From the NCBI GenBank assembly GCA_963666565.1, contig OY762911.1, forward strand, positions 352,001-416,000: a stretch of 64,000 bases of DNA. Direction: 5' to 3'. Positions 16,309 through 35,808 of this stretch are shown here, piece by piece. Positions within the stretch are counted from its first letter, which is position 1, and each line of letters opens with the position of its first letter. Origin of the DNA: Thermoanaerobaculia bacterium (lineage in GTDB: Bacteria > Acidobacteriota > Thermoanaerobaculia > Multivoradales > Multivoraceae). A program made the translations under genes and the position numbers. The notes under the pieces were generated by a model. It did no database searches and was not told the origin of the DNA. It saw only the letters and a list, made by a program, of their open reading frames with translations.

Positions 16309-16634
16309 GCCGGCGACGCACCGTCGACCAGGAGACGCTGGACGAGATCGTCCGCCGGATCGTGGAGGCGGTCGAACCGGAACGGATCATCCTGTTCGGG
16401 TCGGCGGCGCGATGCGAAATGGGCCCGCACAGCGACATCGACCTGCTGGTCGTCAAGGACTGCGAGAGTCCCCTGAAGGCCATGCAGGAAATCTACAGGC
16501 ACCTCTGGGGCCTCGGCGTCGCGGTCGATGCCCTCGTCGCGTCGCCAGCCCGCGTGGAGCGCTACCGCGACAGCCATCCGCTCGTCTTCAAGCCGGTGCT
16601 GAGGGAGGGGCGCGTGATCTATGAAGCCGCCTGA
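16305..16634 (+). CDS. Minimal nucleotidyltransferase (MNT; antitoxin-type)
   Basis: IILFGSAAR...SDIDLLVV (GS-x10-DxD), 109 aa, ends REGRVIYE; ATGA overlap with helicase. Confidence 0.88.
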   Translation: MSRRRTVDQETLDEIVRRIVEAVEPERIILFGSAARCEMGPHSDIDLLVVKDCESPLKAMQEIYRHLWGLGVAVDALVASPARVERYRDSHPLVFKPVLREGRVIYEAA

Positions 16635-16758
16635 GTCTCTGCCGCTGGACGATCCGCGCTCATGGTTGCACCACGCCCACAGCGATCTGTGGATCGCCAA
16701 GGCCGACGCCGTCCAGATTGCCGTGAGCGTCGTCCGACGGGGCGACGAACGCCTGTGA
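16621..16758 (+). pseudogene. Internally deleted HEPN-domain gene (45 aa)
   Basis: Translates MKPPESLPLDDPRSWLHHAHSDLWIAKADAVQIAVSVVRRGDERL*; resembles HEPN first helix (DDPRxWLxxAxSDL) fused to last helix (AVxIAxxVVR); overlaps MNT end and MTase start; absent from the ORF track because it is short. Confidence 0.65.
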
Positions 16759-19742
16759 TCCCCCGCGAGTGCAAGCGCCTCGCCGAGGTCGACTTCCCAA
16801 TCGCGGACGTTTCTCGACACGCGGTGGGAGAGAACTCAGGGTCCGCCGGTCACCCAGCAACGCTGCACAAGTGGTGGGCACGACGACCGCTAGCCTCCTC
16901 TCGGGCCCTGCTCATGGCACTCCTCTTGCCCGATCCTTGCGACCCGCAGTGCCCTCCGCGTTTCGCACAACAGGCCAAGTCACTCCTTGCAGGAACATCT
17001 GGTCTTCCCAGGAAATGGGACCACGCAGCCCGTTCCAACGAGGAACTTCGGACAGCTCTGCTCCAGTTCACCGCAGAACTCGCTCGCTCCGACAACCTAG
17101 CCGTTGCAAGAGACGACCATGTCCGCCTCGGGCGGGCCCTGGTCGAAGCCGCCTACGGCACCGAACCGCCTCTTGTAGTTGATCCGTTTGCTGGCGGCGG
17201 GTCCATTCCCTTGGAGGCCCTGCGACTCGGCTGCGATGCCTTCGCCAGTGACCTGAACGCCGTTGCATGCTTGATCTTGAAGGTCCTGCTTGAAGACATA
17301 CCTCGTTCTGCCTCCTCCCTGAGAACAGATTTGCTACGAGCCGCCAAGGCGCTCAACAGGCACATCGAACAACAACTCACCTCAATTCATCCGTCACCCG
17401 CGAGCGGACGAGTCCCCCTTGCCTACCTTTGGGCCCGAACCGTGACCTGCGAATCGCCCCAATGCGGCGCGGAGATGCCACTTCTGCGTTCCTTCTATCT
17501 CAGCGACAAGCGGAGTGTGGCTCTCCGCCACTCGATCAAGCGGTCCGACAGAGCTCCTGCCCTCACCTTCGACATCTTCGAACCCACATCCGGCGACACG
17601 GTACACGCAGGAACTGTCTCCTACGCGAAAGCCACTTGCCTATGCTGCGGATCTGTCTTGCCCCCAGAGCGCCTGAGAGCCCAGCTCACTCAGCAGCGAG
17701 GCGGTGCGGATGTCACATTCGACGAGGCTGGTAATCGTACAGGCGGAGCACTTCTCCTTGCCACTGTCGCCCTGAACCCCGACCGTAAGACGCGACACTA
17801 TCGGCTACCGACAGCGGCAGACTACCGTGCGGTGCGACTCTCGCAAGTTCGACTAGCTGAACTGCTGGACGAAGAACGGCCCTTAGGCACCTGCCCTGTG
17901 CCCAACGAACCACTACCGCTGATGAGCGGCACGTTTAACGTGCCTCTCTACGGAATGAACTCATGGGGAGACCTCTTTACCGCGAGACAGAAGTTGACCG
18001 GAGCGCTTCTCTGCGACGCGGTTCGGAACTTGGTCGCCGATCCGAAAGTCCAACTACTCCTTGCGTTATCGTTAGGAAAGCTCCATCGCCACTGCAACGC
18101 AGTCAGCAAGTGGCATCGAGGTAGCGAAACGGTGGCCGGCGCTTTCGCGCTACAGGCACTTCCGATGGCTTGGGACTTCCCGGAGATGCACCCCTTGGCG
18201 CCCTACGCGGGCGGACTAACGCACAGCATCGAGGCCGTGGCGGGCATTCTCGACAAATGGCCTCGGGGCTCGGCCGCGCCCAGGCTTGGGCAAACGGAGA
18301 ATGCGAGCGCGCTCAGGCACCCGCTTGGCGACGAGACCGCCGACGTCTGGTTCACCGATCCACCGTACTACTTTGCCGTGCCGTACGCTGACCTTTCGGA
18401 TTTCTTCTTTGTTTGGCTGAAGCGAGCAGTACCCGAGGAAGTGCTCTGGTCGCACTCACGCTTCTTAGAAGACTCGCTCACGGCCAAGAGCGACGAGCTT
18501 TGCGAGATGGAACGGTGGGACTCTAGGCGGTATGCGCACAAGGACAAGCAGTTCTTCGAGGACGGAATGGCTGCAGCGTTCTCGGAGGGTCGTCGGGTTC
18601 TCCGGCAGAACGGTGTCGGGTCCGTCGTCTTCGCCCACAAGACGACAGAGGGCTGGGAGGCTCTTCTTTCCGGCATGATCCGGGGCGGCTGGACCATCAC
18701 GGGCTCGTGGCCTCTCGTGACAGAGCGGAATGCGCGCCTGCGAGCCCGCGAATCTGCTGCCCTCGCGACAAGCGTCCACTTGGTGTGCCGCCCACGCGCC
18801 GAGGACGCGCCGATCGGCGACTGGGCCGAAGTCCTGCGCGAGCTTCCCGGCCGGGTAGCCGAGTGGATGGAGCGCCTCCAGGGCGAAGGCATCCGCGGCG
18901 CCGACCTCGTGTTCGCCTGCATTGGTCCGGCGCTTGAGATCTTCAGCCGCTACCGCGCCGTCGAAACGGCCGAAGGCCGTACCGTCGAACTCGGAGACTA
19001 TTTGGAGAAGGTATGGGAAGTCGTGGGCCAAGCGGCTCTCCGGCAGGTGCTCGGTGCCGCCGAGGGAGTGACGCAAGATGGCCTTACAGGGCCGCTGGAG
19101 GAGGACGCCCGACTTACCGCGCTGTTCCTGTGGACGCTCCAGAGCACGGAGGTGCCGCCCGAGAGCGGCAACGCTGCCGACGATGCGACCGCCACAACCC
19201 AAGCCGCCGCCAAGAGCTTCACCCTGCCGTTCGACGTCGTGCGGCGCTTCGCCCAGCCGATGGGCGTCGACCTCGACGCCTGGACCGGCCGCATCGTTGT
19301 CCAGAAGAAGGGTGTTGTACGCCTGCTGCCGGTTACGGAGCGGGCCGACGAGCTCTTCGGCGACGAAGGTGCCGCCACCGTTGCCGCCGTCATCGAGCGC
19401 GACCCCATCGGAAGTCTTCAACAGGTTCTGTTCCCGGAAGCGGCCGCCCCGCCGTCCTCTCGGCGAGGCCGCCAGAAGGCCGGCAGCCGCCGTGGCAGGC
19501 AAGTGCGGCTGGACGCCGACCCGAACCTCGACCCGACAGGCGCCACGACGCTAGACCGCGTCCATGCCGCGATGCTGCTGCAGTCCAGCGGCCACACGGC
19601 CGCCCTAAGACGGCTGCTTGAAGCCGAGCAGGAACGCGGCCCCGACTTCCTGCGCCTCGCCAACGCCCTCTCGGCCCTCTATCCTCGCGGCTCAACCGAG
19701 AAACGCCTCCTCGACGCCATGCTGCTGGCGGCGCCAAGGTGA
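16755..19742 (+). CDS. DUF1156 adenine-specific DNA methyltransferase
   Basis: IPRECKRLAEVDFPI start, TLHKWWARRPL, SAM-binding DPFAGGGSIPLEA, Cys-pair zinc ribbon, catalytic TDPPY, VFAHKTTEGW. Confidence 0.9.
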   Translation: MIPRECKRLAEVDFPIADVSRHAVGENSGSAGHPATLHKWWARRPLASSRALLMALLLPDPCDPQCPPRFAQQAKSLLAGTSGLPRKWDHAARSNEELRTALLQFTAELARSDNLAVARDDHVRLGRALVEAAYGTEPPLVVDPFAGGGSIPLEALRLGCDAFASDLNAVACLILKVLLEDIPRSASSLRTDLLRAAKALNRHIEQQLTSIHPSPASGRVPLAYLWARTVTCESPQCGAEMPLLRSFYLSDKRSVALRHSIKRSDRAPALTFDIFEPTSGDTVHAGTVSYAKATCLCCGSVLPPERLRAQLTQQRGGADVTFDEAGNRTGGALLLATVALNPDRKTRHYRLPTAADYRAVRLSQVRLAELLDEERPLGTCPVPNEPLPLMSGTFNVPLYGMNSWGDLFTARQKLTGALLCDAVRNLVADPKVQLLLALSLGKLHRHCNAVSKWHRGSETVAGAFALQALPMAWDFPEMHPLAPYAGGLTHSIEAVAGILDKWPRGSAAPRLGQTENASALRHPLGDETADVWFTDPPYYFAVPYADLSDFFFVWLKRAVPEEVLWSHSRFLEDSLTAKSDELCEMERWDSRRYAHKDKQFFEDGMAAAFSEGRRVLRQNGVGSVVFAHKTTEGWEALLSGMIRGGWTITGSWPLVTERNARLRARESAALATSVHLVCRPRAEDAPIGDWAEVLRELPGRVAEWMERLQGEGIRGADLVFACIGPALEIFSRYRAVETAEGRTVELGDYLEKVWEVVGQAALRQVLGAAEGVTQDGLTGPLEEDARLTALFLWTLQSTEVPPESGNAADDATATTQAAAKSFTLPFDVVRRFAQPMGVDLDAWTGRIVVQKKGVVRLLPVTERADELFGDEGAATVAAVIERDPIGSLQQVLFPEAAAPPSSRRGRQKAGSRRGRQVRLDADPNLDPTGATTLDRVHAAMLLQSSGHTAALRRLLEAEQERGPDFLRLANALSALYPRGSTEKRLLDAMLLAAPR

Positions 19743-19746
19743 CCCC

Positions 19747-20958
19747 ATGACTGGCCCGGTCCTGAATCGACTTCTTCTTCACCGCTTTCGGAGCCTGTTC
19801 TCCGAAGAAGTGGTCTTCGGCAACCCGATGTTCGTTGCCGGCAGGAATGGCTCGGGCAAGAGCAATTTCGTGGACGCCTTCGCCTTTCTGGCGGAAGCGA
19901 TGGCGACACCGCTCCAAGCCGTGCTCGACCATCGCGGCGGGTTCAGCACCGTCAGCAACCGCGCTTCGGCCCGAGGGCGACCGTCGAATCTGGGGCTCGG
20001 TGTCGTCCTCGAGGCACCGGACTCGCTTACCGCACGGGCGCGCTACGCCTTCGAGTTGCGCGCAGTGAAGGGGCCCGGCTTTGAAGTCGTTCGCGAGCAG
20101 TGCATCGTCGACGCCACCGACGGGATGAGCCATTGGTTCGACCGGCGAACCGTCCGCGGCGAAACGCAGTGGAAGAGCAACGACTCCATCGAACCCGGCG
20201 TCGCATCGAGCGCACTAGCGCTTCCGCTAATCGGAGGGGATCTGCGCTTCAGACCGGTCCTGGAGTTCGTTGCCAACATCCGGGTCTACCGCATCGAGCC
20301 TGCGGCGCTGCGGTCGATGCAGGACCCGGACGGCGGCACGCGCCTGAAGGCCGACGGCGCCAACACGGCGAGTGTGCTGCGAGCGATCCAGCGCGAGTCG
20401 CCCGACGATTGGAACCGCATCCTGGAGCTCCTCGCCACGATCGTTCCAGGCGTCGTCGACGTCAAGCCCAAGCGTCACGCCAACAAGCTGACCCTCCAGT
20501 TCACCCAAGACTGGCAACAACGCGAGCCCGTGAAGTTCGACGCCTTCAGCATGTCGGACGGGACGCTCCGCGTCCTCGGGCTGCTGACCGCGGTCTACCA
20601 GCGACCAGCTCCGTCGCTCCTCGTCATCGAAGAACCGGAAGCGACGATGCACCCGGGAGCCCTCGGGGCGATTCTGGACGTCGTGCGCCATGCGGGACGC
20701 ACGACGCAGATCGTCGCAACGACGCACAGCCCGGACGTGCTGGACGCCGACTGGATCCGGGACGAACACCTCAGAATCGTCAGTTGGGACCGCGGAGTAA
20801 CCCGGATCGCCCGAATCTCCCGCTCCGCGCGCAAGGCCCTTGCCGAGCACCTGATGGGCGCGGGCGAACTGTTGCGTTCGAACGCCTTGACGCCCGTGGA
20901 GCTCTTCACGGACGACCCGCGGCAATACGAGCTCTTCCTGGACGGTGAACCGCTGTGA
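19747..20958 (+). CDS. ABC-type (AAA_21/SMC-like) ATPase, copy 1
   Basis: FRSL, GRNGSGKSN, signature MSDGTLR, Walker B LLVIEEPE..MHP, TTHSP. Confidence 0.88.
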   Translation: MTGPVLNRLLLHRFRSLFSEEVVFGNPMFVAGRNGSGKSNFVDAFAFLAEAMATPLQAVLDHRGGFSTVSNRASARGRPSNLGLGVVLEAPDSLTARARYAFELRAVKGPGFEVVREQCIVDATDGMSHWFDRRTVRGETQWKSNDSIEPGVASSALALPLIGGDLRFRPVLEFVANIRVYRIEPAALRSMQDPDGGTRLKADGANTASVLRAIQRESPDDWNRILELLATIVPGVVDVKPKRHANKLTLQFTQDWQQREPVKFDAFSMSDGTLRVLGLLTAVYQRPAPSLLVIEEPEATMHPGALGAILDVVRHAGRTTQIVATTHSPDVLDADWIRDEHLRIVSWDRGVTRIARISRSARKALAEHLMGAGELLRSNALTPVELFTDDPRQYELFLDGEPL

Positions 20959-21596
20959 GAATCCAGCCCATCGTGGAGGGCCACGGCGAGGTGGCCGCGC
21001 TGCCTGTGCTTCTTCGCCGCCTCCGCGACGAAGCGGAAGCCTGGAGCGTCGATATCGCACGGCCGATTCGCCGAACCCGCCACCAGCTAGGGCGGGCACC
21101 GGACGTCGAGCGTGCCGTCCGTCTGGCGCTCCTGCAACCGGCCTGCGCCGCAATCCTGATTGTCTTCGACGGAGACCGTGATTGTCCAGCGACCTTGGGC
21201 CCCGAGGTTCAGGCATGGGCCGTCGCGGCGGCGGCTCATGTACCCTGCCAGGTCGTCATCGCGCACCGCGAGTACGAAGCGTGGTTCCTGGCCGCCGTCG
21301 AGTCGCTGCGCGGACAGGGCCTTCGCGACGATGCCCAGCCCCACCCCGAACCGGAAGAGCCACGAGGCGCGAAGGAGGAGCTTGAACGGCTGATGCCGAC
21401 GGGCTCAAGCTACCTTGAGCGCATCGACCAGCCGGCCTTCAGTCACAGATTCAGTCTGCCGACGGCGCACCGGCGCTCCAGGTCCTTTCGCAAGCTGGTC
21501 AAGTCGTTCGGGAACTTGATCCGCTCGATGGACCAAGAGATCGCCGTCTGGCCCCCCGCGTCTTGGTCAGACCTGCATGGAGAGGACCTGGCGTGA
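20955..21596 (+). CDS. DUF4276-family (TOPRIM-like) protein, copy 1
   Basis: PIVEGHGE, DGDRDC, EYEAWFLA, PEEPRGAK, SFRKL; GTGA overlap with ATPase. Confidence 0.8.
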   Translation: MRIQPIVEGHGEVAALPVLLRRLRDEAEAWSVDIARPIRRTRHQLGRAPDVERAVRLALLQPACAAILIVFDGDRDCPATLGPEVQAWAVAAAAHVPCQVVIAHREYEAWFLAAVESLRGQGLRDDAQPHPEPEEPRGAKEELERLMPTGSSYLERIDQPAFSHRFSLPTAHRRSRSFRKLVKSFGNLIRSMDQEIAVWPPASWSDLHGEDLA

Positions 21597-22720
21597 CGGA
21601 TCGAGTCCAGTTGAAGCGCGTTCGAATCCAGGGCTTCCGTTCCCTGGCTCAACTGGAGTTGTCGGACCTTCGCCCAGCCACGGTGCTCATCGGCGCCAAC
21701 GGATCGGGGAAGTCGAACTTCATTCGCTTCTTCGAGATGCTGAGCTGGATGCAGGGGCCGCAACGCCTCGGGGAATTCGTCCAGATGAACGGCGGCGCCG
21801 ACGATCAACTCCACGGCGGCAGCGAGACCACGACGCGGATCGAAGCCGAAGTCTCGCTGAGCACCGGAGCGGGCCGGAACGACTACCGGTTCGTGCTCTC
21901 GCACGCCCACCCGGATCGTCTGCTCTTCACGGAGGAATATCTCCGGTTCCAGAGCAAAGCACTGCCCACCGAACCGGAGTGGCAGCCTCTCGGGAGCGGC
22001 CACGCGGAGACGGAAATCGGCCGAGCGGCCCACGGCGAGTACCCAAACGTCAACCCCACGACGGCCAGGACCATCAGATACCTGCTCCGCACATGCTCGG
22101 TCTTCCAGTTCCATAACACGTCCCGCACCTCCAGCTTCCACAAGAGTTGGGACGCACAGGACACGGCCTACCTTCGCTCCGACGCGGGGAACCTCCCGGC
22201 GGTACTTCGATGGCTCGAAGAAGACGACCTGGCCCGCTACGAGACGATCTGCGACCACATCGGCAGAGTTCTCCCCACCTTCGACAGATTCCAGCTCGCG
22301 GAACGCTACGGCAAGGTATCGCTGCGATGGAAGACCAGGCAGTCGAACAAGACAGTCGGCTCGCATCTCACGTCCGACGGTTCGCTCCGGTTCTTCGCGC
22401 TGGTGACGCTCCTGAATCTCCCGCCCGAGATGCTGCCGAACGTGCTTCTGTTGGACGAACCGGAACTGGGGCTTCATCCGGCTGCGGTGACGCTCGTCGG
22501 AAGCATGCTGAAAGCGGTGGCGAAGGAAAAGCAGGTCGTTGTGGCCACTCAGTCGCCCCTCCTCGTGGACGAGTTCGCCCTTGACGAGATCATCGTGCTC
22601 GAGCTGCGGGACGAGCGGACTGAACCCCAGCGCCTGGACCCGGATCAGTACAGCAGTTGGCTCGAGGAGTTCGCCACCGGCGAGCTCTGGCAGAAGAACC
22701 TCCTCGGAGGCCGCCCTTGA
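21593..22720 (+). CDS. ABC-type (AAA_21) ATPase, copy 2
   Basis: IQGFRSL, LIGANGSGKSN, TSDGSLR, LLLDEPELGLHP, ATQSP, ends GELWQKNLLGGRP. Confidence 0.88.
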   Translation: MTDRVQLKRVRIQGFRSLAQLELSDLRPATVLIGANGSGKSNFIRFFEMLSWMQGPQRLGEFVQMNGGADDQLHGGSETTTRIEAEVSLSTGAGRNDYRFVLSHAHPDRLLFTEEYLRFQSKALPTEPEWQPLGSGHAETEIGRAAHGEYPNVNPTTARTIRYLLRTCSVFQFHNTSRTSSFHKSWDAQDTAYLRSDAGNLPAVLRWLEEDDLARYETICDHIGRVLPTFDRFQLAERYGKVSLRWKTRQSNKTVGSHLTSDGSLRFFALVTLLNLPPEMLPNVLLLDEPELGLHPAAVTLVGSMLKAVAKEKQVVVATQSPLLVDEFALDEIIVLELRDERTEPQRLDPDQYSSWLEEFATGELWQKNLLGGRP

Positions 22721-23385
22721 ACCGCTTGGCCGTGACCGTGGAAGGCGGCACCGAAGAAGAGTTCGTCAAGCGCGTTCTCGCGGATCACCTGCGCACCGCG
22801 GGTGTCGAGCCCACGCCGATTCTCCTCGGCCGCGCCCGCAGTCGCTTCGGAGGAGGTAACGTCTCTGTCGAGCGACTCGTCTCGGAAATGGTCGAACTGT
22901 CCCGGTCGTTCGACGCCGTCACGTCGTTCGTGGACTTCTACGGTTTTCGCCGCAAGGGCCAGCAGTCCGCGGACGACCTTGAGAACACCCTCGGCCAGCG
23001 GCTCCGCGAGCGAATGGGAGATCGCTGGCGACCGTCGCGCGCGATTCCGTACGTACAGCGGCATGAGTTCGAGAGCCTGCTGTTCTCGAACGTGGACGCC
23101 TTCGGGCGAGTGCTAGGGGCGGCGCCGGAAGCCGTCGGAGAACTGCGGGCGGTCCGCGCGGAGTTCTCGACTCCCGAGGACATCAACGACAGCACCCAGA
23201 CCTGCCCCAGCAGGAGGATCGAGCGCTGCTTGCCCTCGTACGGCAAACGCCGGGACGGGCCGCGTGTGGCCGAGGACATCGGCTTGGCGACGATGTGCGC
23301 CGAGTGTCCCAGATTCCGCGTCTGGCTGACGAGCCTAGAGTCGATGGGAAGCAGTACACCGGCCGGCCACGGGGAGAGAAGATGA
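22717..23385 (+). CDS. DUF4276-family (TOPRIM-like) protein, copy 2
   Basis: VEGGTEEEFV, DFYG, PYVQRHEFESLLF, PEDIND...PSRRI, CPRFRVWL; TTGA overlap. Confidence 0.82.
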   Translation: MNRLAVTVEGGTEEEFVKRVLADHLRTAGVEPTPILLGRARSRFGGGNVSVERLVSEMVELSRSFDAVTSFVDFYGFRRKGQQSADDLENTLGQRLRERMGDRWRPSRAIPYVQRHEFESLLFSNVDAFGRVLGAAPEAVGELRAVRAEFSTPEDINDSTQTCPSRRIERCLPSYGKRRDGPRVAEDIGLATMCAECPRFRVWLTSLESMGSSTPAGHGERR

Positions 23386-23401
23386 CCGGGAGAAACAAGC
23401 C

Positions 23402-26167
23402 ATGGCGCTAATGCCCTGGTACAAGGTCGTGACCCCGCGGCGCGAGGTCCGCGAAGGCCGCTCGTTCAGCCCGGACGAGTTCGCCATCGCGCTGGAGCAG
23501 GTCGTCGCCGGCACGGCGCCGGAGGACTACCGGAATCCGGAGCAGTTCTTCTCGCGGACCTGCTTCACGCGCGCGCTCAGGGAGCACGCCGGCATGGCGC
23601 TTCGCCGGCTTGCCGGCGAGACGGGCAACACGGCGCCCGTGCTCACGCTGATCACGCAGTTCGGCGGCGGCAAGACGCACACGCTGACGGCGCTCTACCA
23701 CCTGGCCAGGGCTGGCTCGAAGGCAGCCGAGCTTCCCGGCGTGCCGGAGCTTCTGCGCGATGCCCGGATGGCGTCAGCACCGGAGGCCCGCGTCGGCGTG
23801 TTTGTCGGCAACGCCTGGGATCCCTCGGAAGGGCGCGAAACGCCCTGGATCGACCTCGCGCGCCAGTTGGCGGGCGCCGAGGGAGTCGACGCTCTCGGCA
23901 CTTCGGCACGAACGACTCCGCCCGGCACCGAGGCGCTGGGCCGAGTGTTCGACGCCGCGGGCGGCCCCGTGCTGCTGCTCTTCGACGAAGTGCTGAACTT
24001 CGTCAACCGGCACCGCGGCATGGCGGACAGCTTCCACGCCTTCCTGCAGAACCTGACGGTCGCTGTAACCGGCAGGACGGGCACGGTCGCCGTGATCAGC
24101 CTGCCGCGAAGCCAGGTCGAGATGACGGAGTTCGACCAGGAATGGCAGAACCGGATCACCAAGATCGTCCGGCGCGTCGCCCGCGACCTGATCGCGAACG
24201 ACGAGGCCGAGATCGGCGAAGTCGTCCGGCGACGGCTCTTCGAGCACCTCGGCGGCGAACGCATCCGAAGGAGGGTCGCCGGCGCGTACGCCGAGTGGTG
24301 CTTTGAACGCTCCGCCCGTCTACCGTCCGAGTGGCTGAAGGTAGACACCGCAACCCGTCCAACGAAGGCGAGAGAGTTCCTCAAGAGCCGCTTCGAGGCC
24401 TGCTACCCGTTCCATCCGGCCACACTCTCCGTGTTCCAGCGCAAGTGGAGCGCGCTGCCGCAGTATCAGCAGACCCGCGGCACGTTGGCCATGCTGGCGC
24501 AGTGGATCTCCTGGGCGGCCCGCCGGCAATTCGCTCAGGCGCGGACCGAGCCCCTGATCACGCTCGGATCCGCACCGCTCGACGTTCCGGAGTTCCGAGC
24601 CGGCGTCCTCGGCCAGTTGGGAGAGGCGCGTCTCGGCGCAGCGATCAAGTCCGATCTCGCGGGAAGCACGGCGCACGCCAAAGCCCTCGACGCCGACACG
24701 AGGGGCCCGCTCCGCGACATTCACCGGCGGGTCGGCGCCGCCATCCTCTTCGAGTCGTCAGGCGGGCAGGTGGACAAGGTGGCGCACCTGCCCGAACTGC
24801 GGTTCGCGCTAGGCGAACCGACGGTCGAGACGACGAGCGTGGACAACGCCGCGAGCGCGCTCGAAGCGTCGAGTTTCTTCCTCCGCACCGTGGGAACGGA
24901 CGGCTACCGAATCCACCACCAGGCGACGCTCCGGAAAGTCGTCAGCGACCGGCAGGCGTCGCTCGACGAGGAGACCGAGGTCAAGCCCGCGATCCGCTCC
25001 CTGGTCGAGTCCGAGTTTCGGACCGGGGCCGAACTGCCTCTCGTCCTGTTTCCGGCGGACAGCGCCGCAGTCCCGGATTCTCCCCGGTTGACCGTGGTAG
25101 TGGCCGATCCCGACGCGGGAGCGGGCGACGAGGAGGCGCTCAAGACGATCGAAAGATGGACCGTCGAACGGGGCAACTCGCCGCGTCTGTACCCCGGCGC
25201 TCTGGTCTGGTGCGCCAAGAAACCGGGGCGCGAACTTCAGTCGAAGGTCGAAACCCTGCTGGCATGGCAGCGGGTGGCTCGCGAAGTCGCGGAAGGCGTC
25301 CTCGGCGCCGAGTATGATCGGGCCGACCGGCAGCGAGTCCAAGCCACGGTCAGGGAAGCTCGCGACGCGGCCAAGGACGAGATCTGGGCAGGCTACCGCT
25401 TCGTCACCTTGCGCGACGGCCGGGAGAAGCGCCTGAAGACGATCGATCTCGGCGCCGGCCACGCCAGCGCCAGCGAATCGCTCTGCGGCCGAATCGTCGG
25501 CACCCTGCGAGCCGAAGCGTTACTCAGCAACTCGGTCGGGGCCGGCTACATCGAACGTCACTGGCCGCCGGCCCTGGAGGCGGATGGGGCCTGGCCGCTG
25601 CGAGGTTTGCGTCAGAGCTTCCTCGACGGCGCGTTGACCCGGCTGATCGACCCCGACGCCGTCTTGCGCCGCCAGATTCTCGAATTCGTCGCCCGCGGCG
25701 ACTTCGGCCTCGGATCCGGAAAGGAGAACGGCGCCTTCCGCCGGCTCTGGTACGCGGAAGCAGTGCCGCCCGAAGAGGTGGCTTTCGAGCCAGACGTCTA
25801 CCTCGTGGCAAAGTCGAAGGCGGATGCGCTGCGAACGGCGCCGCCGGTCGGCCCATCGCCGGAACCGACGTCGCCGCTCGAATCCGAACCACCCAGCGCG
25901 CCGCCGAGTAAGCCCGACGCGAAAGGCCACCAAGCCGCGCAGAAGGTCACGCTTCGCCTTGTGGGCGACGTGCCGCCGGAAGTCTGGAACCGGCTTGGCA
26001 CGAAGCTGCTCACCAAGCTCCGCACGGGAAGCGACGTGCGGGTTGGAATCGAGTGCCAGGTTGCGGTCGATCCGGCGTTCGCCGAAGCGCTGGCAAGCGA
26101 CCTGCGGCTGATCCTGGACGATCTCGGACTGACGGAGCGGGTGCGCATCGACCGAACCCCGAGCTGA
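23402..26167 (+). CDS. DUF499 AAA+ ATPase
   Basis: PWYKVVTPRREV, FFSRT, TQFGGGKTH Walker A, LLLFDE Walker B, VVRRRLF, YPFHP, QQTRGTL. Confidence 0.9.
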   Translation: MALMPWYKVVTPRREVREGRSFSPDEFAIALEQVVAGTAPEDYRNPEQFFSRTCFTRALREHAGMALRRLAGETGNTAPVLTLITQFGGGKTHTLTALYHLARAGSKAAELPGVPELLRDARMASAPEARVGVFVGNAWDPSEGRETPWIDLARQLAGAEGVDALGTSARTTPPGTEALGRVFDAAGGPVLLLFDEVLNFVNRHRGMADSFHAFLQNLTVAVTGRTGTVAVISLPRSQVEMTEFDQEWQNRITKIVRRVARDLIANDEAEIGEVVRRRLFEHLGGERIRRRVAGAYAEWCFERSARLPSEWLKVDTATRPTKAREFLKSRFEACYPFHPATLSVFQRKWSALPQYQQTRGTLAMLAQWISWAARRQFAQARTEPLITLGSAPLDVPEFRAGVLGQLGEARLGAAIKSDLAGSTAHAKALDADTRGPLRDIHRRVGAAILFESSGGQVDKVAHLPELRFALGEPTVETTSVDNAASALEASSFFLRTVGTDGYRIHHQATLRKVVSDRQASLDEETEVKPAIRSLVESEFRTGAELPLVLFPADSAAVPDSPRLTVVVADPDAGAGDEEALKTIERWTVERGNSPRLYPGALVWCAKKPGRELQSKVETLLAWQRVAREVAEGVLGAEYDRADRQRVQATVREARDAAKDEIWAGYRFVTLRDGREKRLKTIDLGAGHASASESLCGRIVGTLRAEALLSNSVGAGYIERHWPPALEADGAWPLRGLRQSFLDGALTRLIDPDAVLRRQILEFVARGDFGLGSGKENGAFRRLWYAEAVPPEEVAFEPDVYLVAKSKADALRTAPPVGPSPEPTSPLESEPPSAPPSKPDAKGHQAAQKVTLRLVGDVPPEVWNRLGTKLLTKLRTGSDVRVGIECQVAVDPAFAEALASDLRLILDDLGLTERVRIDRTPS

Positions 26168-26205
26168 CGTTCCGCACCTCCACCAGCTCGAACCATGTAC
26201 TCGAT

Positions 26206-26217
26206 TCCCGGCAAGGT
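26206..26217 (+). repeat. Left copy of a 12-bp direct repeat TCCCGGCAAGGT flanking the RT gene
   Basis: Identical 12-mer at 26206-26217 and 29193-29204. Confidence 0.6.
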
Positions 26218-27178
26218 TCCGAGTCGGTGGCGCTCTTGACAACTCCTCCATGCCTACCCAAGTAACCACTGGACGCGGCCTATCACCAGCTGCGGCCTTC
26301 ACCGGGCTCGTCGACCATGGCCTCTTCAGCGAGAAACTCCCACCCTGCTTCACCTCCGAGGGGCTCTCCACGTGTATTCCTCCCGCGCTTCTGCCGGTCG
26401 CCACCGAGGTCGATCCGAAGAAGCTGTGGAAACTCCTTAAGGGCAGGACACACAACTACATCCGATACAGCCTCCTTCGCGACAGCAACGTCCCGCGCCA
26501 ACTCGGCGTGCCGCACCCAGAGAGCTACTTGGCCCAGTGTCTGGCGATTCAGCGCCTCTTCCCCGCCATCAAGAACCACTGCGCGAAGCCGCACCCACCC
26601 GTGAGCCGTATCTTCGTCCGCAGCACGGCCGGGAAACGCGTGTTCCAGATGAACTACCAAGGACGAGAACGCTTCGACAACACCGAACTCGACTTGCCAC
26701 ACATGACGGGCGCCGCCTACGTCGCTAACTCCGATATCTCGAGTTGCTTCCCTTCAATCTACACGCACTCGATTCCCTGGGCTCTCCACGGAAAGGCCAA
26801 CGCCAAGAAAGGCCGCTTCGACTTCTCTGCGGGCAACTTGCTGGACCGCGCCACCCAATGCACTCAGGACGGACAAACGAACGGACTCCTTATCGGGCCA
26901 CACTCGTCCAACCTGCTAGCAGAGATCATCCTCACATCCGTTGACGAGAGAATCCTGAAAAGGGGTTACTCCCGGGTCGTTCGTCACATCGACGACTACA
27001 AGTTCTACGCGAAGACACACGAGGAGGCTGAGCGCTTCCTTCGCGAGCTTTCACTGGAGATGCGCAAGTTCGAGCTGGTACTCAACGACCGGAAGACACG
27101 AATCCTCCGAATGCCCCGTCCCCTCGACAGTGAATGGGTCAGGCAACTCACCGGATCTCAACTGGCGCGAAGCAGAGG

Positions 27179-28517
27179 GGGTCTTCAGGCTGTTGTGTGG
27201 GCAAGAGCGGCGTGTATGGCCGCCCATCGGCCTTAGACTGGCGGGATGAAGAGTGCCAGGACGTTCGAGAGGTTGTTGGGGATCAAGCCGCCTTGGCGGG
27301 TGCGGGAGGTGGTGCTTCGGATGGACGAGCCGCATCCGCGCCGCCGCGGTCCGGTGGTGGGCGGGACGGTGGAGATCCACGTCGAGCATCGCGGGGAGAC
27401 CCGCTGTCCCGAGTGCGGCGTGGCGTGTCCGGGCTACGACAGCAGGCATCGCCGCTGGCGTCATCTGGACACGATGCAGCACCAGACCCGGGTTCACGCC
27501 GAGGTGCCTCGGGTGCGCTGCGCCGAGCATGGCGTTCACCAGTTGAAGGTACCTTGGGCGGACGAGGGTTCGCGGTTCACGGCGCTGTTCGAGGCGGAGG
27601 CCATCGAGTGGTTGCGAGAGGCGAGCGTTCACGCCGTGGCGCGCCGCATGGGCTTGAGCTGGGATGAGACGGCGGGGATCCAGCGTCGCGCCGTGGAGCG
27701 TGGTCTCGCGAGACGCCGGCTGGAGCCGCCTCGGCTGTTGGGCGTGGACGAGACGTCGTTTCGGAGGCGCCACGAGTACGTGACGGTGGTCAACGATCTG
27801 GAGCGTGGCGTGGTGACCCATGTGGCCGACGGTCGCGGCCGGTCGGCCATCGACGGCTACTTCGAGGAGCTGGGCGAAACGAAGTGCGCGGGCATCGAGC
27901 AAGTGGCGATGGACATGTGGCCGGCCTACATCTCTTCGGTGGAGGAGTACACGGACGCGGACATCGTTCATGACCGATTCCACATCGTCGCGCACCTGAA
28001 CCACGCGGTGGACCTGGTTCGGCGCGCCGAGCAGCGGGAGTTGCTCGAAGCAGGGGATCCGAGTCTGAAGCGGAGTCGCTACCTGTGGCTGATGGGGAGT
28101 GGGCGCATGACCCGTTCGCAGCAGCGGCGCTTCGCCGCTCTTCGCGCGAGCCACCTTCGCGTGGCCCGGGCCTGGGCGATCAAGGAGATGGCGCGGGACT
28201 CGTGGGGCTACATGCGCCGCGGGTGGGCCGAGCGGCGCTGGACGCGCTGGTACAACTGGGCGATTCGCAGCCGGCTGAAACCGATCAGGAAGGTGGCCAG
28301 GATGATCAGGAGCCACTGGGACGCCGTCATCAACGCCGCCGTGTCCGGCATCTCCAGCGCCAACGCCGAGGGGATCAACGCGACGATCCAGAAGATCAAG
28401 CGAAGAGCGCACGGCTATCGAAACCGAGAGCACTTCCGGCTCGCCATCTACTTCCATCTCGGCGGACTCGACATGGCTCCCGAGTCACTCCGTGCCCACA
28501 CATAACCCGGAAGCGCC
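27179..28517 (+). mobile_element. ISL3-family insertion sequence, 1339 bp
   Basis: Imperfect 25-bp terminal IRs (GGGTCTTCAGGCTGTTGTGTGGGCA vs GGCGCTTCCGGGTTATGTGTGGGCA, 19/25) and 8-bp TSD AGCAGAGG at 27171-27178 and 28518-28525. Confidence 0.95.
27246..28505 (+). CDS. ISL3-family transposase
   Basis: Zinc finger CPECG...PRVRCAEHG, LGVDET, VAMDMW, DRFHI, AEGINATIQKIKRRAHGYRN; intact ORF. Confidence 0.95.
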   Translation: MKSARTFERLLGIKPPWRVREVVLRMDEPHPRRRGPVVGGTVEIHVEHRGETRCPECGVACPGYDSRHRRWRHLDTMQHQTRVHAEVPRVRCAEHGVHQLKVPWADEGSRFTALFEAEAIEWLREASVHAVARRMGLSWDETAGIQRRAVERGLARRRLEPPRLLGVDETSFRRRHEYVTVVNDLERGVVTHVADGRGRSAIDGYFEELGETKCAGIEQVAMDMWPAYISSVEEYTDADIVHDRFHIVAHLNHAVDLVRRAEQRELLEAGDPSLKRSRYLWLMGSGRMTRSQQRRFAALRASHLRVARAWAIKEMARDSWGYMRRGWAERRWTRWYNWAIRSRLKPIRKVARMIRSHWDAVINAAVSGISSANAEGINATIQKIKRRAHGYRNREHFRLAIYFHLGGLDMAPESLRAHT

Positions 28518-29192
28518 AGCAGAGGGAGGGTCGGAATCGGACCACCGCGCGCCCTCCTCGATCTGGCGTTGAAGCTGGCCCAAGAGAACGGCACGTCCGC
28601 GGTCTTGAACTACGCGATCAAGATGGTCCCGGCGCGTTTGTATCCCAGGGCTCGGCCTCTCTTCGTCCGACAGGTGGTCAACCTTGCGCTTCAGTACCCA
28701 TACCTGGCAACCCTTCTCGACGTCCATCTCTTCCAGAAACACCGCTACGACGGCATCGAGACCATTATCCGGGAGTTCAGCGACGAGCTCGTTGTGATCG
28801 GCACGAGGCGGCTCTTCTCGGACGCGATCTGCCAAGCTCTGTATCTTGCACTGAAGTACGGGTTCGACATCCCCTCTCTTGATGAGCAGCGCGCCAAGCA
28901 GATTCTCGACATGAACGACTGTCTGTCGGACGTTCTTCTCTTCTCCTACTCAGGGCGTCATGGACTCCGACAGACGCGAGGACGCCTTCGGCACCGCGCG
29001 AAACAGCTACGGGGGCACCCGCTTGAGCAGCAGGATCGGTTCTGGCTCCTGCTGTACGAAGTGTCGACTCCGCAAGCTCTGAGGCGGGCGGACCAGGAGT
29101 TCCTTGCGGACTTGAAGGACGGTGGATTCCGCTTCGTGAGGTTCGAGTGAATCTGCGGCGCAGAACGCGGTATGGCCCTCTGGGCCCTGGAG

Positions 29193-29204
29193 TCCCGGCA
29201 AGGT
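29193..29204 (+). repeat. Right copy of the 12-bp direct repeat TCCCGGCAAGGT
   Basis: Matches 26206-26217. Confidence 0.6.
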
Positions 29205-29442
29205 CTGGGCCGCCTGCGGAGTGCCGCGAGGCTGGCGCTGTTGGAGCTTCTCCGGCACGCGACCACCCCACTGCTGCAGGACAGACGCCACGTTCAGAGC
29301 GACAAAGACGGGAAACCGGGCTAGCTGGCGCATCTGGAGGCGATACGATCACACACTGGACGACCCTAGGAGGCCTCCAGCGACCGCGTAGCGCGTACTG
29401 AGCCGGGCATCGCAGTAGCTGGGAGCGGAGAAAAACCGCGCC

Positions 29443-30630
29443 ATGAACCCTGAATCCAGTCCGTTCAGTCCAGGACAGCCGGTGCCCGCCGAGTTTTTCG
29501 TCGGCCGCACGGCGGAGATCGACTGTCTGCGGGGCATGGTTCGGGGCAGCGCCGAAGGCCGGTTCCGTGTCGGCTTCATCAGCGGCGAGCGGGGCATCGG
29601 GAAGAGTTCGATCGCGGCCTTCGTCCGCCGGCTCGTGGAGCAGGAAGGCGACGCCGTCGGCTGCCACGTCTTCCTGGGAGGAGTGCAGGGCCTTCCGGAG
29701 ATGCTGCGCCGGACGTTCGACCGTCTGCTCAAGGAGAGCATCGACCGGCCGTGGCACGATCAGCTCAAGGGCTACTTCGGAAACCGCGTCAGACAGGTCG
29801 GCCTCTTCGGCGTGACCCTCGAGCTGGATCTCTCCGACGAGGAGTTCTCTACCGTTCAGCACGACTTCGTGCCGGCGATCCGGCGCCTCCTGGACAAGAT
29901 CAAGGACCACAGGAGATCCCTGTTCCTGATCCTCGACGACATCAACGGGTTGGCCCGGTCGGCGGACTTCGCCAACTGGCTCAAGAGCTCGGTGGACGAG
30001 ATCGCCACGTCGGAGCCACCGACGCGGCTTTGCCTCCTCGTGGTCGGGCTGGAGGAACGTCGCGCGGATCTCATCGCCCGCCAACCTTCGCTGGCCCGGG
30101 TGTTCGATCTTGTCGACATCGCGCCTTGGTCGGACGACGAGGCGCGCGAGTTCTACCGCAACTCGTTCGCGGTCGCGGGAGCGCACATCGCCGGGCGGGA
30201 ACTCGATTTGCTGGTCCGCTTCACCGGCGGCCTTCCCGTTCTCGCCCACGAGATCGGCGACGCGGTGTGGCGTGAGTCGAGGACGCGCGAGATCCGATCG
30301 GGCGACGTTGTCAGAGGCGTGGCGGCTGCCGCCGAGGTCATCGGCAGGAAGCTGCTCGAGCCCCGGATCTTCAAGGCGGTTCGCAGCGAGCGCTATCGGT
30401 CGATCCTCCGCCGGATCGCGGAGGAGCCCAGGACCCGTTTCACCCGCGCGGAACTCCTGGAGCGGTTACCGGGCAAGGAGAGGAAGGCGCTCGACAGCTT
30501 CCTGCGGCGCATGAAGGAACTCGGAGCGATCGAGTCCGACCCGGAGGTGAACGGCGGGTACCGATTCCCCAACCGGCTGCACGCGCTGTACTTCTTCACC
30601 GAGGCACAGACGCACCAAACCAGGATCTGA
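29443..30630 (+). CDS. P-loop ATPase of AAA_16/archaeal-ATPase (STAND-like) type with probable C-terminal winged helix
   Basis: SPFSPGQPV...FVGR, ISGERGIGKSS Walker A, LILDD Walker B, TGGLP, GGYRFPNRL. Confidence 0.8.
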   Translation: MNPESSPFSPGQPVPAEFFVGRTAEIDCLRGMVRGSAEGRFRVGFISGERGIGKSSIAAFVRRLVEQEGDAVGCHVFLGGVQGLPEMLRRTFDRLLKESIDRPWHDQLKGYFGNRVRQVGLFGVTLELDLSDEEFSTVQHDFVPAIRRLLDKIKDHRRSLFLILDDINGLARSADFANWLKSSVDEIATSEPPTRLCLLVVGLEERRADLIARQPSLARVFDLVDIAPWSDDEAREFYRNSFAVAGAHIAGRELDLLVRFTGGLPVLAHEIGDAVWRESRTREIRSGDVVRGVAAAAEVIGRKLLEPRIFKAVRSERYRSILRRIAEEPRTRFTRAELLERLPGKERKALDSFLRRMKELGAIESDPEVNGGYRFPNRLHALYFFTEAQTHQTRI

Positions 30631-33048: not shown

Positions 33049-35775
33049 CTATGCCTTCGCTTCGTACCAGTCGGTGCCGGAGTCGATGTCGACGACCAGG
33101 GGAACGCTGAGGTCTGCGACTCCCTCCATTTCTTCGCGCACCAGGGACATCAGCGCCTCGATGTCCGCGGCGGGCGCTTCAAGCACGAGTTCGTCGTGGA
33201 CGGTCAGGAGCAGCCGCGCCGCCCCGAGTTCCGCCCGCAGCCGCCAGTCGACGGCGATCATCGCCAGCTTGAGCAGGTCGGCGGCGGTGCCCTGGATGCG
33301 GGCGTTGACGGCCATCCGGCGGGCGTTCTCGCGCACCGCCCGGTTGCGGCTCTTGAGGTCGGGGATGTAGCGAACGCGGCCGTACAGCGTCTCGACCTGG
33401 AGCGTCTCCTCCGCGCTGGACAGGGTCCGCTCGGTGTAATCGCGCACCCCGGGGAAGCGCTCGAAGTAGGCGTCGATGAACGCCTGCGCCTCGCCGCGGG
33501 CGATGCCCAGCGCGCGGGCCAGACCGAAAGCGCTCATGCCGTAGATGATCCCGAAGTTGATCGTCTTGGACGCCCGCCGCTGCTCGTCGGTGACCAGGGC
33601 GGGCGCCACGCCGAACACGGTCGCCGCGGTCGAGCGGTGGATGTCGCCGCCGTGCCGGAAGATGTCGATGAGCGCCTCGTCCTCCGAGATGTGGGCGAGC
33701 ACGCGGAGCTCGATCTGGCTGTAGTCGGCGACCAGCAGCCGGTAGCCGTCGCGGGCGCGGAAGGCGCGGCGGATCCGCCGCCCGACCTCGGTGCGGATCG
33801 GGATGTTCTGCAGGTTCGGGTCGTGCGAGGACAGGCGGCCGGTGGCCGCCACCGCCTGGTGGTAACGGGTGTGCAGGCGGCCGTCGGCGGCCACCAGGCC
33901 CGGCAGCGCATCCACGTAGGTCGACCTGAGCTTCGTCAGCTCCCGGTACTGGAGCACCTTGGCCGGCGCGTCGTGACCCTGCCGGGCGAGATGTTCCAGC
34001 ACGTCGGCGCCGGTCTTGTACTTCTTCGTCTTGCGCGTTCGGCCGGGCGCGGGCAGGCCCATGTGCTCGAACAGGACGACGCCCAACTGCTGCGGCGACA
34101 GGATGTTGAACTCCTCGCCGGCAAGCTGGAAGATCTCCTCAGCGAGGGCGCCGGCGTCCCGCTGCAGCCGCCGCGACATCTCGGCGAGCACGCCGGCGTC
34201 GAGTTCGATGCCCTCTTCCTCCATCGCCGCCAGCACCGGCAGCAGCGGCGCCTCGATCTGGCCGTAGACCTTGCGCGCCCCCGGCGACTCGCTCCACTGG
34301 TCGGCGAGCGCCTCGAAGATCAGCGCCGGCAGCACCGCCTGCTCGGCGGCGTAGAGCCGCAGCCCGGCGTCGTCGCCCAGAGCCGCCGCCTGGCCGCCGG
34401 GTTCGCCCAGCCCGGCGTCCGCCGGCGTCGTCGCCTGGTAGAACAACCGGTCGAGCGCGACGGTCGCCAGCCCGAAGCTGCGCACGGCGGAGTGGACCAG
34501 GTAGGCCATCAGCATCGTGTCCACCAGGCGAGCGGCGACCTCCGGCCGGCCCTCGCGGTGCGGGCAGAGCCGGACGACTTCCTTGAGGTCGTGGCCGACC
34601 AGCTCCACGCCCGGGTCGGCAAGCCAGGCCCGCAGCGTCGCCGCCGCCGCCTCGCGCATGCCCGGCGTCCGGAAGTCAGCGAAGCGCGCCTGGCCGATTT
34701 TCGCTTCGCCAGCCGCCGTCTCGTCGCCGGATGCGCCCCCCGAGTCGCGGTCCGCGGCAGCCGCCGCGCCGTCGAGCGGCGCGAACGACAGCCCCACCGG
34801 TTCGCCGCCGCGCCGGAAGACGACGCCGACGGCGATCCGGGATCCCATCTCGTTGGCCGCCGCCTCGAACGCCTCGACGGACTCCAGGACGGCGGCGGGC
34901 TCGATCTCCGGGCCGCCGCTCTCGCTTTCGAGTTCCTTCAGCAGGCTCCAGAACTCGAACTCGCGGCACAGATCGGCCAGCGCCTCGTAGTCCGGGGATT
35001 CCATCTTCAGCGCCTCGGGCTCGAACGGGACGTCGAGGTCCGTGTGGATCGTGACCAGGTCCCTGGACAGCAGCGCCTGGTCGGCGTGATCCCGCAGCCC
35101 CTCGCGATAGGCCTTGCGCTTGAGTTCGGGCGCGGCGTCCAGCAGCGCCTGGAGGTTGCCGTACTCCCTGACCAGGGTCTGCGCGCCCTTCTGGCCGATT
35201 CCGGGCACGCCCGGCACGTTGTCCACCTTGTCGCCGACCAGGGCGAGCACGTCGACCACCTGGCCCGGCGGCACGCCGAAGTCCTGCTCGACCAGCGCCG
35301 GGTCGTAGGTCTTCTCGCGCCCGGTGTGAAGCAGCGAGACGCGATCGCTCACCAACTGGAACAGGTCCTTGTCCGCGCTGACGATCGTCACCTCGTAGCT
35401 GGCCTCCTCGGCCTTCCGCCCCAGCGTGCCGATGACGTCGTCCGCCTCGTAGCGTTCCAGTTCGAGGATCGGGATGCGGAAGGCCTCGATCGCGCGGCGG
35501 ATCGCCGGCATCTGCGCCCGCAGATCCTCCGGCATCGGCGCCCGGTTCGCCTTGTACTCGGCGTACGCCTCGGTGCGCACCGTGGCCCGGCCGACGTCGA
35601 GGGCGATGCCGAGCAGCGGCGGCTCCTCCTCGCGCAGCAGCTTGCGCAGCATGTTGATGAAGCCGTAGATCGCGTTCGTCGGCTCTCCCGTCGACGTCGA
35701 GAGGCCGCGGATCGCGTAGAAGGCGCGGAAGATCGTCGAGTAGCCGTCGATCAGGTAGAGGCGCTTCGCGGTCAC
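33049..35775 (-). CDS. polA: DNA polymerase I
   Basis: LYLIDG...RAFYA, YEADDVI, SADKD, GDKVDNVPGVPGIG, TGRLSSHDPNLQNIP, ADYSQIELR, KTINFGIIYG, TVHDEL. Confidence 0.97.
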   Translation of the reverse strand: MTAKRLYLIDGYSTIFRAFYAIRGLSTSTGEPTNAIYGFINMLRKLLREEEPPLLGIALDVGRATVRTEAYAEYKANRAPMPEDLRAQMPAIRRAIEAFRIPILELERYEADDVIGTLGRKAEEASYEVTIVSADKDLFQLVSDRVSLLHTGREKTYDPALVEQDFGVPPGQVVDVLALVGDKVDNVPGVPGIGQKGAQTLVREYGNLQALLDAAPELKRKAYREGLRDHADQALLSRDLVTIHTDLDVPFEPEALKMESPDYEALADLCREFEFWSLLKELESESGGPEIEPAAVLESVEAFEAAANEMGSRIAVGVVFRRGGEPVGLSFAPLDGAAAAADRDSGGASGDETAAGEAKIGQARFADFRTPGMREAAAATLRAWLADPGVELVGHDLKEVVRLCPHREGRPEVAARLVDTMLMAYLVHSAVRSFGLATVALDRLFYQATTPADAGLGEPGGQAAALGDDAGLRLYAAEQAVLPALIFEALADQWSESPGARKVYGQIEAPLLPVLAAMEEEGIELDAGVLAEMSRRLQRDAGALAEEIFQLAGEEFNILSPQQLGVVLFEHMGLPAPGRTRKTKKYKTGADVLEHLARQGHDAPAKVLQYRELTKLRSTYVDALPGLVAADGRLHTRYHQAVAATGRLSSHDPNLQNIPIRTEVGRRIRRAFRARDGYRLLVADYSQIELRVLAHISEDEALIDIFRHGGDIHRSTAATVFGVAPALVTDEQRRASKTINFGIIYGMSAFGLARALGIARGEAQAFIDAYFERFPGVRDYTERTLSSAEETLQVETLYGRVRYIPDLKSRNRAVRENARRMAVNARIQGTAADLLKLAMIAVDWRLRAELGAARLLLTVHDELVLEAPAADIEALMSLVREEMEGVADLSVPLVVDIDSGTDWYEAKA

Positions 35776-35785
35776 GGCGGCGACT

Positions 35786-35795
35786 ACTCTAGAGT
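35786..35795. promoter_or_regulatory. Palindromic bidirectional -10 element ACTCTAGAGT
   Basis: Reads TAGAGT on both strands inside a 33-bp gap between divergent start codons. Confidence 0.55.
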
Positions 35796-35808
35796 GTCGA
35801 GTCGAGTC

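Follow-up and report, generated by a model that had tools for sequence, protein, structure and literature searches.

A DRT4 (UG15)-type reverse transcriptase gene split by an ISL3-family insertion sequence at the end of an Hma/HEC-01 island in a Thermoanaerobaculia bacterium

We analyzed a stretch of 64,000 nucleotides from a Thermoanaerobaculia bacterium (GenBank assembly GCA_963666565.1, contig OY762911.1, positions 352,001 to 416,000), hereafter referred to as the window, and focused on a reverse transcriptase (RT) gene that is split by an insertion sequence (IS) and spans positions 26250-29150. Taken together, the results make it very probable that this gene is a DRT4 (UG15) gene, last in a 16.7-kb Hma/HEC-01 island that has selB on one side and an AAA_16 ATPase gene on the other, that it was split by an ISL3-family IS, and that its product would, by homology, have followed the DRT4 mechanism. 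An earlier interpretation, made from the letters of the window alone (the sequence-only reading), had described an uncharacterised DRT-like gene that was recently silenced by an ISL3 insertion.

The open reading frame (ORF) track shows the gene as two ORFs on the same strand, 26250-27236 (328 residues) and 28569-29150 (193 residues), with a 419-residue ORF between them, just as the sequence-only reading had pointed out; the 5' ORF as it stands continues into the IS, to position 27236. A scripted join of 26250-27171 to 28519-29150 produced 1554 nt, corresponding to 517 codons and a stop codon with no internal stops, which confirmed the uninterrupted frame that had been predicted upon removal of the IS. 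The reconstructed product aligned with three homologues of 516 residues over positions 1-516 without gaps, and with the uninterrupted gene of the same-genus genome G029 (locus L004/L013; gene at L013 10001-11551) over positions 1-517, again without gaps and with an identity of 92.3%. The joined protein thus held from end to end (517/517 residues) against an intact sister-species allele. At the DNA level, the window was 91% identical to G029 from within the island up to the RT stop codon, where the similarity ended. The insertion point fell within residues 301-319, the part of the protein with the lowest conservation, which connects the RT palm to the helical domain. Empty sites were found in two relatives, namely L013, in which the gene is intact, and L018, a decayed island with a single copy of the 9-mer described below. 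A metagenome contig, discussed below, also bridged the site, with one net extra base.

The perfect 8-bp target duplication and the intact transposase noted in the sequence-only reading were both recovered. In the raw sequence, GCAGAGGG was found at 27172-27179 and 28519-28526, and the exact repeat is actually 9 bp long (AGCAGAGGG, at 27171-27179 and 28518-28526). Because of this 9-bp identity, the IS is 1339 bp long with ends that are ambiguous by one base (27180-28518 or 27179-28517), and an 8-bp duplication is compatible with both placements. The transposase ORF (27246-28505) matched the Pfam family DDE_Tnp_ISL3 along profile positions 1-240 of 240 (8e-73) and also carried HTH_Tnp_ISL3 and Zn_ribbon_ISL3 domains, and the inverted repeats of the IS were imperfect (27183-27203 and 28493-28513; 21 nt, 81% complementary). 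ISL3 elements are generally about 1.3 kb long, with terminal inverted repeats and an 8-bp target duplication, as catalogued in ISfinder. The element in the window showed no notable difference from this family in its DDE, HTH and Zn-ribbon domains, its length of ~1.3 kb, its inverted repeats or its 8-bp duplication, and it was assigned at the family level, from domains and ends rather than against named ISfinder entries.

Upon comparison with known defence systems, the gene at 26250-29150 was assigned to DRT type 4 (UG15), a known and mechanistically characterized class, on the basis of PADLOC models, a PDB sequence search and a fold search rather than a reference phylogeny. The PADLOC Drt4 model PDLC02178 matched the 5' half (1.1e-96, profile 12-296 of 506) and the 3' half (4.2e-35, profile 311-501 of 506), and it matched the intact 92%-identical allele over residues 11-515 with 458.9 bits (profile 12-501 of 506). 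The two best PADLOC models for this allele were both Drt4 (458.9 and 414.6 bits), and Drt6 scored 304.2 bits. In a phmmer search against the PDB, the UG15/DRT4 chain 21ou_A was the top of 11 matches to the 5' part (6.9e-35), and the 3' part matched DRT4 at 9.5e-6. The intact allele of the sister species was modelled with AlphaFold (mean local confidence, pLDDT, of 84.5; pTM of 0.86), which revealed helices at residues 315-508 that correspond to an alpha-Rep domain and mostly had a pLDDT above 85. Foldseek aligned this model over its full length (532 columns) with the DRT4 structure 9vdo (8e-26, template modelling (TM) score of 0.77/0.80) and also with the UG15 chain 9l9s; DRT6 came next, followed by AbiK. 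A search of the genome revealed no second DRT4 copy.

The RT motifs quoted in the sequence-only reading (DIS..FPSIYTHSIPW, LIGP and HIDD) were present, and its view of a class 1 Abi/UG defence-type RT with a helical C-terminal domain was borne out. Its label of an uncharacterised gene did not survive, given the PADLOC, PDB and fold matches to DRT4/UG15, a class whose priming residue, cryo-electron microscopy structures, RNase effector activity and phage triggers have been reported (PMC12783706; bioRxiv 10.64898/2026.10.21.760695; 10.64898/2026.10.27.754916). The gene resembled E. coli DRT4/UG15 (PDB 9vdo, 9vdv, 9l9s and 21ou; Wang et al. 2025, PMC12783706) as described there in being one thumbless polypeptide of fingers and palm with a C-terminal alpha-Rep domain, and E. 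coli DRT4 was the top profile, sequence and fold match. AbiK and Abi-P2 (PDB 7r06 and 7r08) likewise belong to class 1 of the UG/Abi RTs, contain an alpha-Rep domain and synthesize DNA in a protein-primed, untemplated manner. Their matches were far weaker (60 bits, TM of 0.65-0.72), and their priming Tyr is reported to lie in a fingers loop rather than in the palm (PMC12783706).

The functional residues of E. coli DRT4 were also found in the reconstructed protein. In a HMMER alignment, Y136 corresponded to the palm priming residue Y125 of the E. coli enzyme, within an MNY motif; D162, D248 and D249 corresponded to the three catalytic residues D149, D240 and D241; and H173 and D199 corresponded to the RNase pair H160 and D192. 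Y136, D162, H173, D199 and D248 were conserved in all 114 homologues (114/114), and D249 was conserved in 113. The priming Tyr has been reported to be absolutely conserved across 174 DRT4 systems (PMC12783706).

According to the published accounts, DRT4 is a single-gene system that forms a dimer of trimers, makes random purine-rich single-stranded DNA (ssDNA) without a template, primed on Tyr125, and is triggered by a phage DNA-binding protein resembling single-stranded DNA-binding protein (SSB) (PMC12783706). Two preprints of October 2026 report an RNase activity of DRT4 that depends on deoxynucleoside triphosphates (dNTPs) or on dGTP, with its site, His160/Asp192, at the trimer-trimer interface, and activation by phage SSB via the C-terminal subdomain as well as by phage NrdAB (bioRxiv 10.64898/2026.10.21.760695; 10.64898/2026.10.27.754916). 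By analogy with the E. coli enzyme, the intact protein would be a hexamer that uses its own tyrosine, Y136, as the primer for untemplated, purine-rich ssDNA. The RNase site H173/D199 would be switched on by the binding of an SSB-like phage protein, by a rise in dNTPs, or by both, and the infection would thereby abort. The alpha-Rep domain would stand in for the thumb and build the trimer interface. We propose that an ISL3 element resident in the genus transposed into the poorly conserved linker between palm and alpha-Rep, at codon 307/308, and duplicated 8 bp; the outcome would be a 307-residue RT fragment with a 21-residue tail encoded by the IS, and a separate alpha-Rep fragment without a proper start. 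A C-terminal deletion of 38 residues is reported to abolish UG15 immunity (PMC9226505), and the substitution F140A at the palm/alpha-Rep interface to abolish oligomerization, polymerization and defence (PMC12783706). Since the alpha-Rep domain is predicted to build the trimer interface, and since the short C-terminal deletion already abolishes immunity, the split gene is almost certainly inactive.

Several observations weigh against our interpretation. The identity to the studied E. coli DRT4 was only ~26% over the fold alignment, and DRT6 was close behind in the PDB searches (114 vs 124 bits; TM of 0.77). The YxDD motif reads HIDD, so that its first residue is a His, unlike the Tyr of E. coli DRT4 (Y238), which stacks on the 3' base of the primer; given that His was present in 71/114 homologues (Tyr in 37), HIDD appears to be a trait of the clade and not a defect. 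The C-terminal ~70 residues could not be aligned by sequence with the C-terminal domain (CTD) of the E. coli protein, described as the SSB sensor (residues 508-540). Within the C-terminal region, phmmer covered only E. coli residues 318-444, and the protein was 23 residues shorter (517 vs 540). With no alignable sensor CTD, the trigger may differ from that of E. coli DRT4; the clade shares a conserved aromatic C-terminal tail in its consensus, which may or may not correspond to the E. coli CTD. A public metagenome run from another study yielded a 411-nt contig, from a relative ~97% identical, that joined 27174 to 28523 with a net gain of 1 nt in an A-run over the exact empty site, which may be a frameshifted allele or a contig error. 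What is known of DRT4 in this organism comes from sequence and model. Finally, the branch test bearing on the age of the insertion was coarse, being a parsimony count on four sequences, two of them outgroups, with 47 RT sites unresolved: for the RT, the window branch carried 24 synonymous against 17 non-synonymous changes, and the branch of the intact L013 gene 20 against 15. For hmaC, the same kind of count gave 47 and 15 on the window branch and 68 and 29 on the other branch.

Some of these points favour the alternative that the RT is DRT6 (UG12), or a separate, as yet uncharacterized sister clade of UG15, in which case DRT4 biochemistry would not be simply transferable. DRT6 has the same fold (TM of 0.77/0.80) and a similar sequence score. 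The PDB phmmer scores were 124.2 bits for E. coli DRT4 and 114.1 bits for 9wy8_A, which carries the label DRT6 in Foldseek, the TM score was 0.77 for DRT4 and DRT6 alike, and the deviating HIDD motif, shorter chain and unalignable CTD point in the same direction. We nevertheless consider this alternative quite unlikely, as the PADLOC Drt6 model scored 155 bits below Drt4 on the intact allele, and the palm priming Tyr and the His/Asp RNase pair of DRT4 were invariant among the homologues. Moreover, DRT6 has been described as structurally homologous to DRT4 and as responding to the same phage protein (PMC12783706), so the mechanism would hardly change.

With the gene taken as DRT4, it was then considered whether the interrupted copy could still be useful, either with the IS as a reversible switch (precise excision) or with fragments that work in trans. 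The branch counts did not point to any relaxation of constraint confined to the split gene, and because it had no extra decay, the insertion looks recent; the recent silencing proposed in the sequence-only reading is compatible with these counts, and the cost and the reversion by precise excision that it also put forward are conjectures. The same absence of further decay in either half would also suit a useful gene, as would the perfect target duplication with an intact transposase and the N-terminal fragment, in which the RNase pair and the catalytic Asp residues are retained along with the priming Tyr. However, no IS-free joint at the IS ends was found in the three public runs that carry this allele, a weak result because it comes from contigs, in which rare variants are lost. 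The 3' fragment lacks a start at the junction, its first listed in-frame start being a TTG at 28569, and both the 38-residue deletion and the F140A substitution cited above speak against function in pieces. Frameshifts, stops, deletions and IS of other types had disrupted other DRT4 genes, a pattern that looks like plain loss. Continued usefulness of the split gene is therefore very improbable.

The DRT4 gene started 82 bp after hmaC, and all island genes were on the + strand (Table 1). The sequence-only reading had placed the RT directly behind a DUF499 gene; this was confirmed, and the DUF499 gene is hmaC. As is characteristic of Hma, the helicase HmaA, the DUF1156 methylase HmaB and the DUF499 ATPase HmaC were encoded on one strand. 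The HEC-01 ORFs matched PADLOC HEC-01A (4.6e-107 and 2.7e-117) and HEC-01B (1.5e-64 and 2.6e-60). We also observed that the two HEC-01 ATPases best matched different PADLOC HEC-01A models and that the sister species with L013 keeps only the second pair intact. Beyond the split DRT4 gene, the rest of the island looks intact.

Table 1. Features of the island, the split RT gene and their flanks (window coordinates).
Feature	Position	Strand	Basis
selB, selenocysteine elongation factor; left flank, outside island	10772-12700	+	Pfam GTP_EFTU, Beta-barrel_SelB, SelB-wing_3
hmaA, SNF2 helicase with NOV_C	12859-16308	+	PADLOC HmaA 5.9e-167; Pfam SNF2-rel_dom, Helicase_C, NOV_C
hmaB, DUF1156 N6-adenine methyltransferase	16662-19742	+	PADLOC HmaB 3.6e-95; Pfam DUF1156
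Two tandem HEC-01 pairs (ABC ATPase and DUF4276/TOPRIM-like), between hmaB and hmaC	19618-23385	+	Pfam AAA_21, DUF4276
HEC-01 ORFs	19618-20958, 20955-21596, 21563-22720, 22657-23385	+
hmaC, DUF499 AAA+ ATPase	23402-26167	+	PADLOC HmaC 1.1e-93; Pfam DUF499 8.7e-12
DRT4 5' part with RT fingers and palm (codons 1-307 and linker)	26250-27179	+	PADLOC Drt4; RVT_1 1e-8; PDB match
Left target-duplication copy, AGCAGAGGG	27171-27179	.	Sequence read; 8 bp duplicated, 9 bp identical
ISL3-family IS, 1339 bp	27180-28518	+	Inverted repeats, target duplication, copies elsewhere
ISL3 transposase, 419 residues, apparently intact	27246-28505	+	Pfam domains
Right target-duplication copy, AGCAGAGGG	28518-28526	.	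Sequence read
DRT4 3' part, alpha-Rep helical domain, 210 codons and stop	28519-29150	+	PADLOC Drt4; PDB match; model helices
Spacer with right edge of island	29151-29442	.	G029 island homology ends ~29155; no family or RNA match
AAA_16 ATPase; right chromosomal flank, outside island	29443-30630	+	Pfam AAA_16 1.1e-14; no PADLOC match

To the left of the island, a sensor kinase, a sigma-54 regulator and selB were found. In the same-genus genome G011 (locus L078, contig C89, 10027-10155), an empty site was present, with 128 bp between the end of selB and a 79%-identical homologue of the AAA_16 ATPase. This adjacency of selB and the ATPase indicates that the island spans ~12.7-29.44 kb (12701-29442, 16.7 kb) and that the ATPase belongs to the chromosomal flank. 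No direct repeats flanking the island were found in the window above chance level. An Rfam search of 25900-29700 at E-values up to 1 gave no match and revealed no non-coding RNA near the RT, and the ORF at 29147-29401 had no Pfam match. A promoter and terminator scan of 25900-29600, which is uninformative in a 70% GC genome, returned no promoter-like site and one terminator-like site on the minus strand, below the shuffle mean. Downstream of the island, 33196-39516 holds a 2106-residue ORF with TPR, FG-GAP and ASPIC/UnbV repeats that is unrelated to the RT.

The sequence-only reading had raised the downstream ATPase (29443-30630) as a possible partner of the RT. A functional two-gene system of this kind, with or without 29151-29442, would fit the position of the ATPase on the same strand, 292 bp downstream, and its STAND-like ATPase domains. 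The comparison of genomes makes it highly improbable: in G011 the ATPase stands 128 bp after selB without the island while the RT homologue lies on another contig, the island homology between the window and G029 ends at the RT stop codon, and a tblastn search located an ATPase homologue at none of the 58 other DRT4 loci, with the exception of the decayed syntenic locus L018. In addition, the ATPase had no PADLOC match. The spacer 29151-29442 was likewise rejected as an RT partner, as it had no Rfam or Pfam match and the homology to the G029 island ends at ~29155. With the ATPase excluded, the absence of an Rfam match and the variable neighbours among the 59 DRT4 loci surveyed, the gene fits the stand-alone, single-gene type.

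Hma systems with embedded defence cassettes have been described by Payne et al. (preprint 10.1101/2024.01.29.577857), and Hma has also been named a Type-1 BREX-related DUF499 system (PMC12839542). The island in the window has exactly the architecture described in the former, with hmaA, hmaB and hmaC on the same strand and HEC-01 between hmaB and hmaC; it differs from that description in that DRT4 follows hmaC and is appended rather than embedded. Our literature search found no paper that links UG15/DRT4 with Hma or DUF499; the figures and supplements of Payne et al. lay outside the search and may list cases. Of the possibility, foreseen in the sequence-only reading, of an already characterized clade in the same context, the clade part thus holds, and the Hma context was not found in print. 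A literature search on defence RTs inactivated by IS returned general papers only.

We also examined the ISL3 element outside the split gene. A second full copy was present in the same genome (G000:C1:4118509-4119848; 94.8% identity, same ends, without a recognizable target duplication), together with a 144-bp remnant of the right end of the IS. Five other genomes of the genus contained full-length copies that covered query positions 1-1338 or 1-1339 with 81-91% identity, at most six per genome, which fixed the ends of the IS independently of the window. Both IS junctions were crossed with 0 differences by contigs of three public runs (2023, 2024 and 2025), which may be the source of the assembly and do not count as independent support. 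Loose ends at the IS borders in those runs corresponded to sequence that flanks the second copy and the right-end remnant, indicating that these copies were resolved separately. An assembly artefact is suggested by the repeated nature of the IS, with its second copy of ~95% identity, and by the extra depth over it, and is nonetheless hardly credible given the exact target duplication, the separately resolved copies and the contigs that connect each end of the IS with unique RT sequence.

Next, we compared the association of Hma and DRT4 within the genus. A DRT4 homologue was found in 6/36 other genomes of the genus; in three (L013, L014 and L015) of the five top-scoring of these six, which were searched for HmaC, the homologue lay directly behind hmaC. 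The sequence downstream of Hma-DRT4 in each of these three loci differed from that in the window, which indicates that Hma and DRT4 move as one unit. The unit was decayed in L016 and L018. In L018 (5424-13571), a decayed island occupied the same site, with hmaA and hmaB lost, a fragment of hmaC, and an RT with two internal deletions. We also observed in L018 that ~770 bp of the selB 3' end were duplicated, with one copy on each side of the island remnant.

In a wider survey, 65 loci were fetched from contigs representing one genome per species, and 59 of them (L013-L071) were DRT4 relatives. As the neighbour on either side of the RT, we took the longest ORF found up to 2.5 kb away, a crude choice that makes all the following counts lower bounds. 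Upstream, at least 29/57 ORFs had a PADLOC match at E-values up to 1e-8: at least 13 matched Type I restriction-modification (R-M) genes (6 S, 6 M and 1 R), at least six were Type IIG/PglX-like, and HmaC (at least three), mad3 (at least two), HEC-01B (at least one) and other PADLOC matches (at least four) were also found. Hma, Type I or Type IIG genes therefore made up at least 22 of the 57 upstream neighbours. Downstream, scanned at E-values up to 1e-40, Type I restriction subunits accounted for at least 8/51 ORFs. At a minimum of seven loci (L034, L036, L044, L045, L051, L052 and L060), Type I genes were present on both sides of the RT, and DRT4 lay between the Type I methylase or specificity genes and the restriction subunit and was thus embedded.

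Approximately 9/59 DRT4 copies were visibly broken. Deletions were found in L018 and L070, an in-frame stop in L061, and frame changes, for which a long-read assembly error is possible, in L055, L056, L058 and L063. Some of these copies, among them possibly L061 and L070, come from long-read chromosome assemblies, in which sequencing errors may mimic breakage. Two paralogues in one Latescibacterota genome, L028 (11374-13367) and L029 (11374-12966), were each interrupted near the C-terminus by different transposase genes, DDE_Tnp_1_4 in one and rve (IS3-like) in the other, and are independent IS hits on DRT4. The DRT4 clade is thus often in or next to methylation-based restriction systems and has been repeatedly broken.

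The splitting of DRT4 by ISL3 is a real but ordinary event in an enzyme type that is already well studied; taken alone, it carries little weight, as one more IS-inactivated defence gene in an uncultured environmental bacterium. The placement of DRT4 as an appendage to Hma and the tendency of the clade to accompany restriction systems are modest additions that agree with the embedding concept already published. A bolder, and in our view rather unlikely, proposal is that the DRT4 clade is not free-standing and habitually rides with Hma, Type I R-M and Type IIG/PglX-like systems as a co-transcribed and functionally coupled second-line layer of abortive infection, and that its breakage reflects selection against self-toxicity when the first line suffices. 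If this were true, the Hma-DRT4 unit, conserved in at least three species of the genus, where it occupies different genomic positions, would form a composite system of two layers. The divergent DRT4 branch (~26% identity, HIDD, a different C-terminal tail), for which an intact sister allele is available, could serve to test the generality of the model of an RNase triggered by SSB and dNTPs. The loci of the survey provide a concrete natural set in which to ask what brings abortive-infection RTs together with restriction-type systems and at what rate these RTs are lost.

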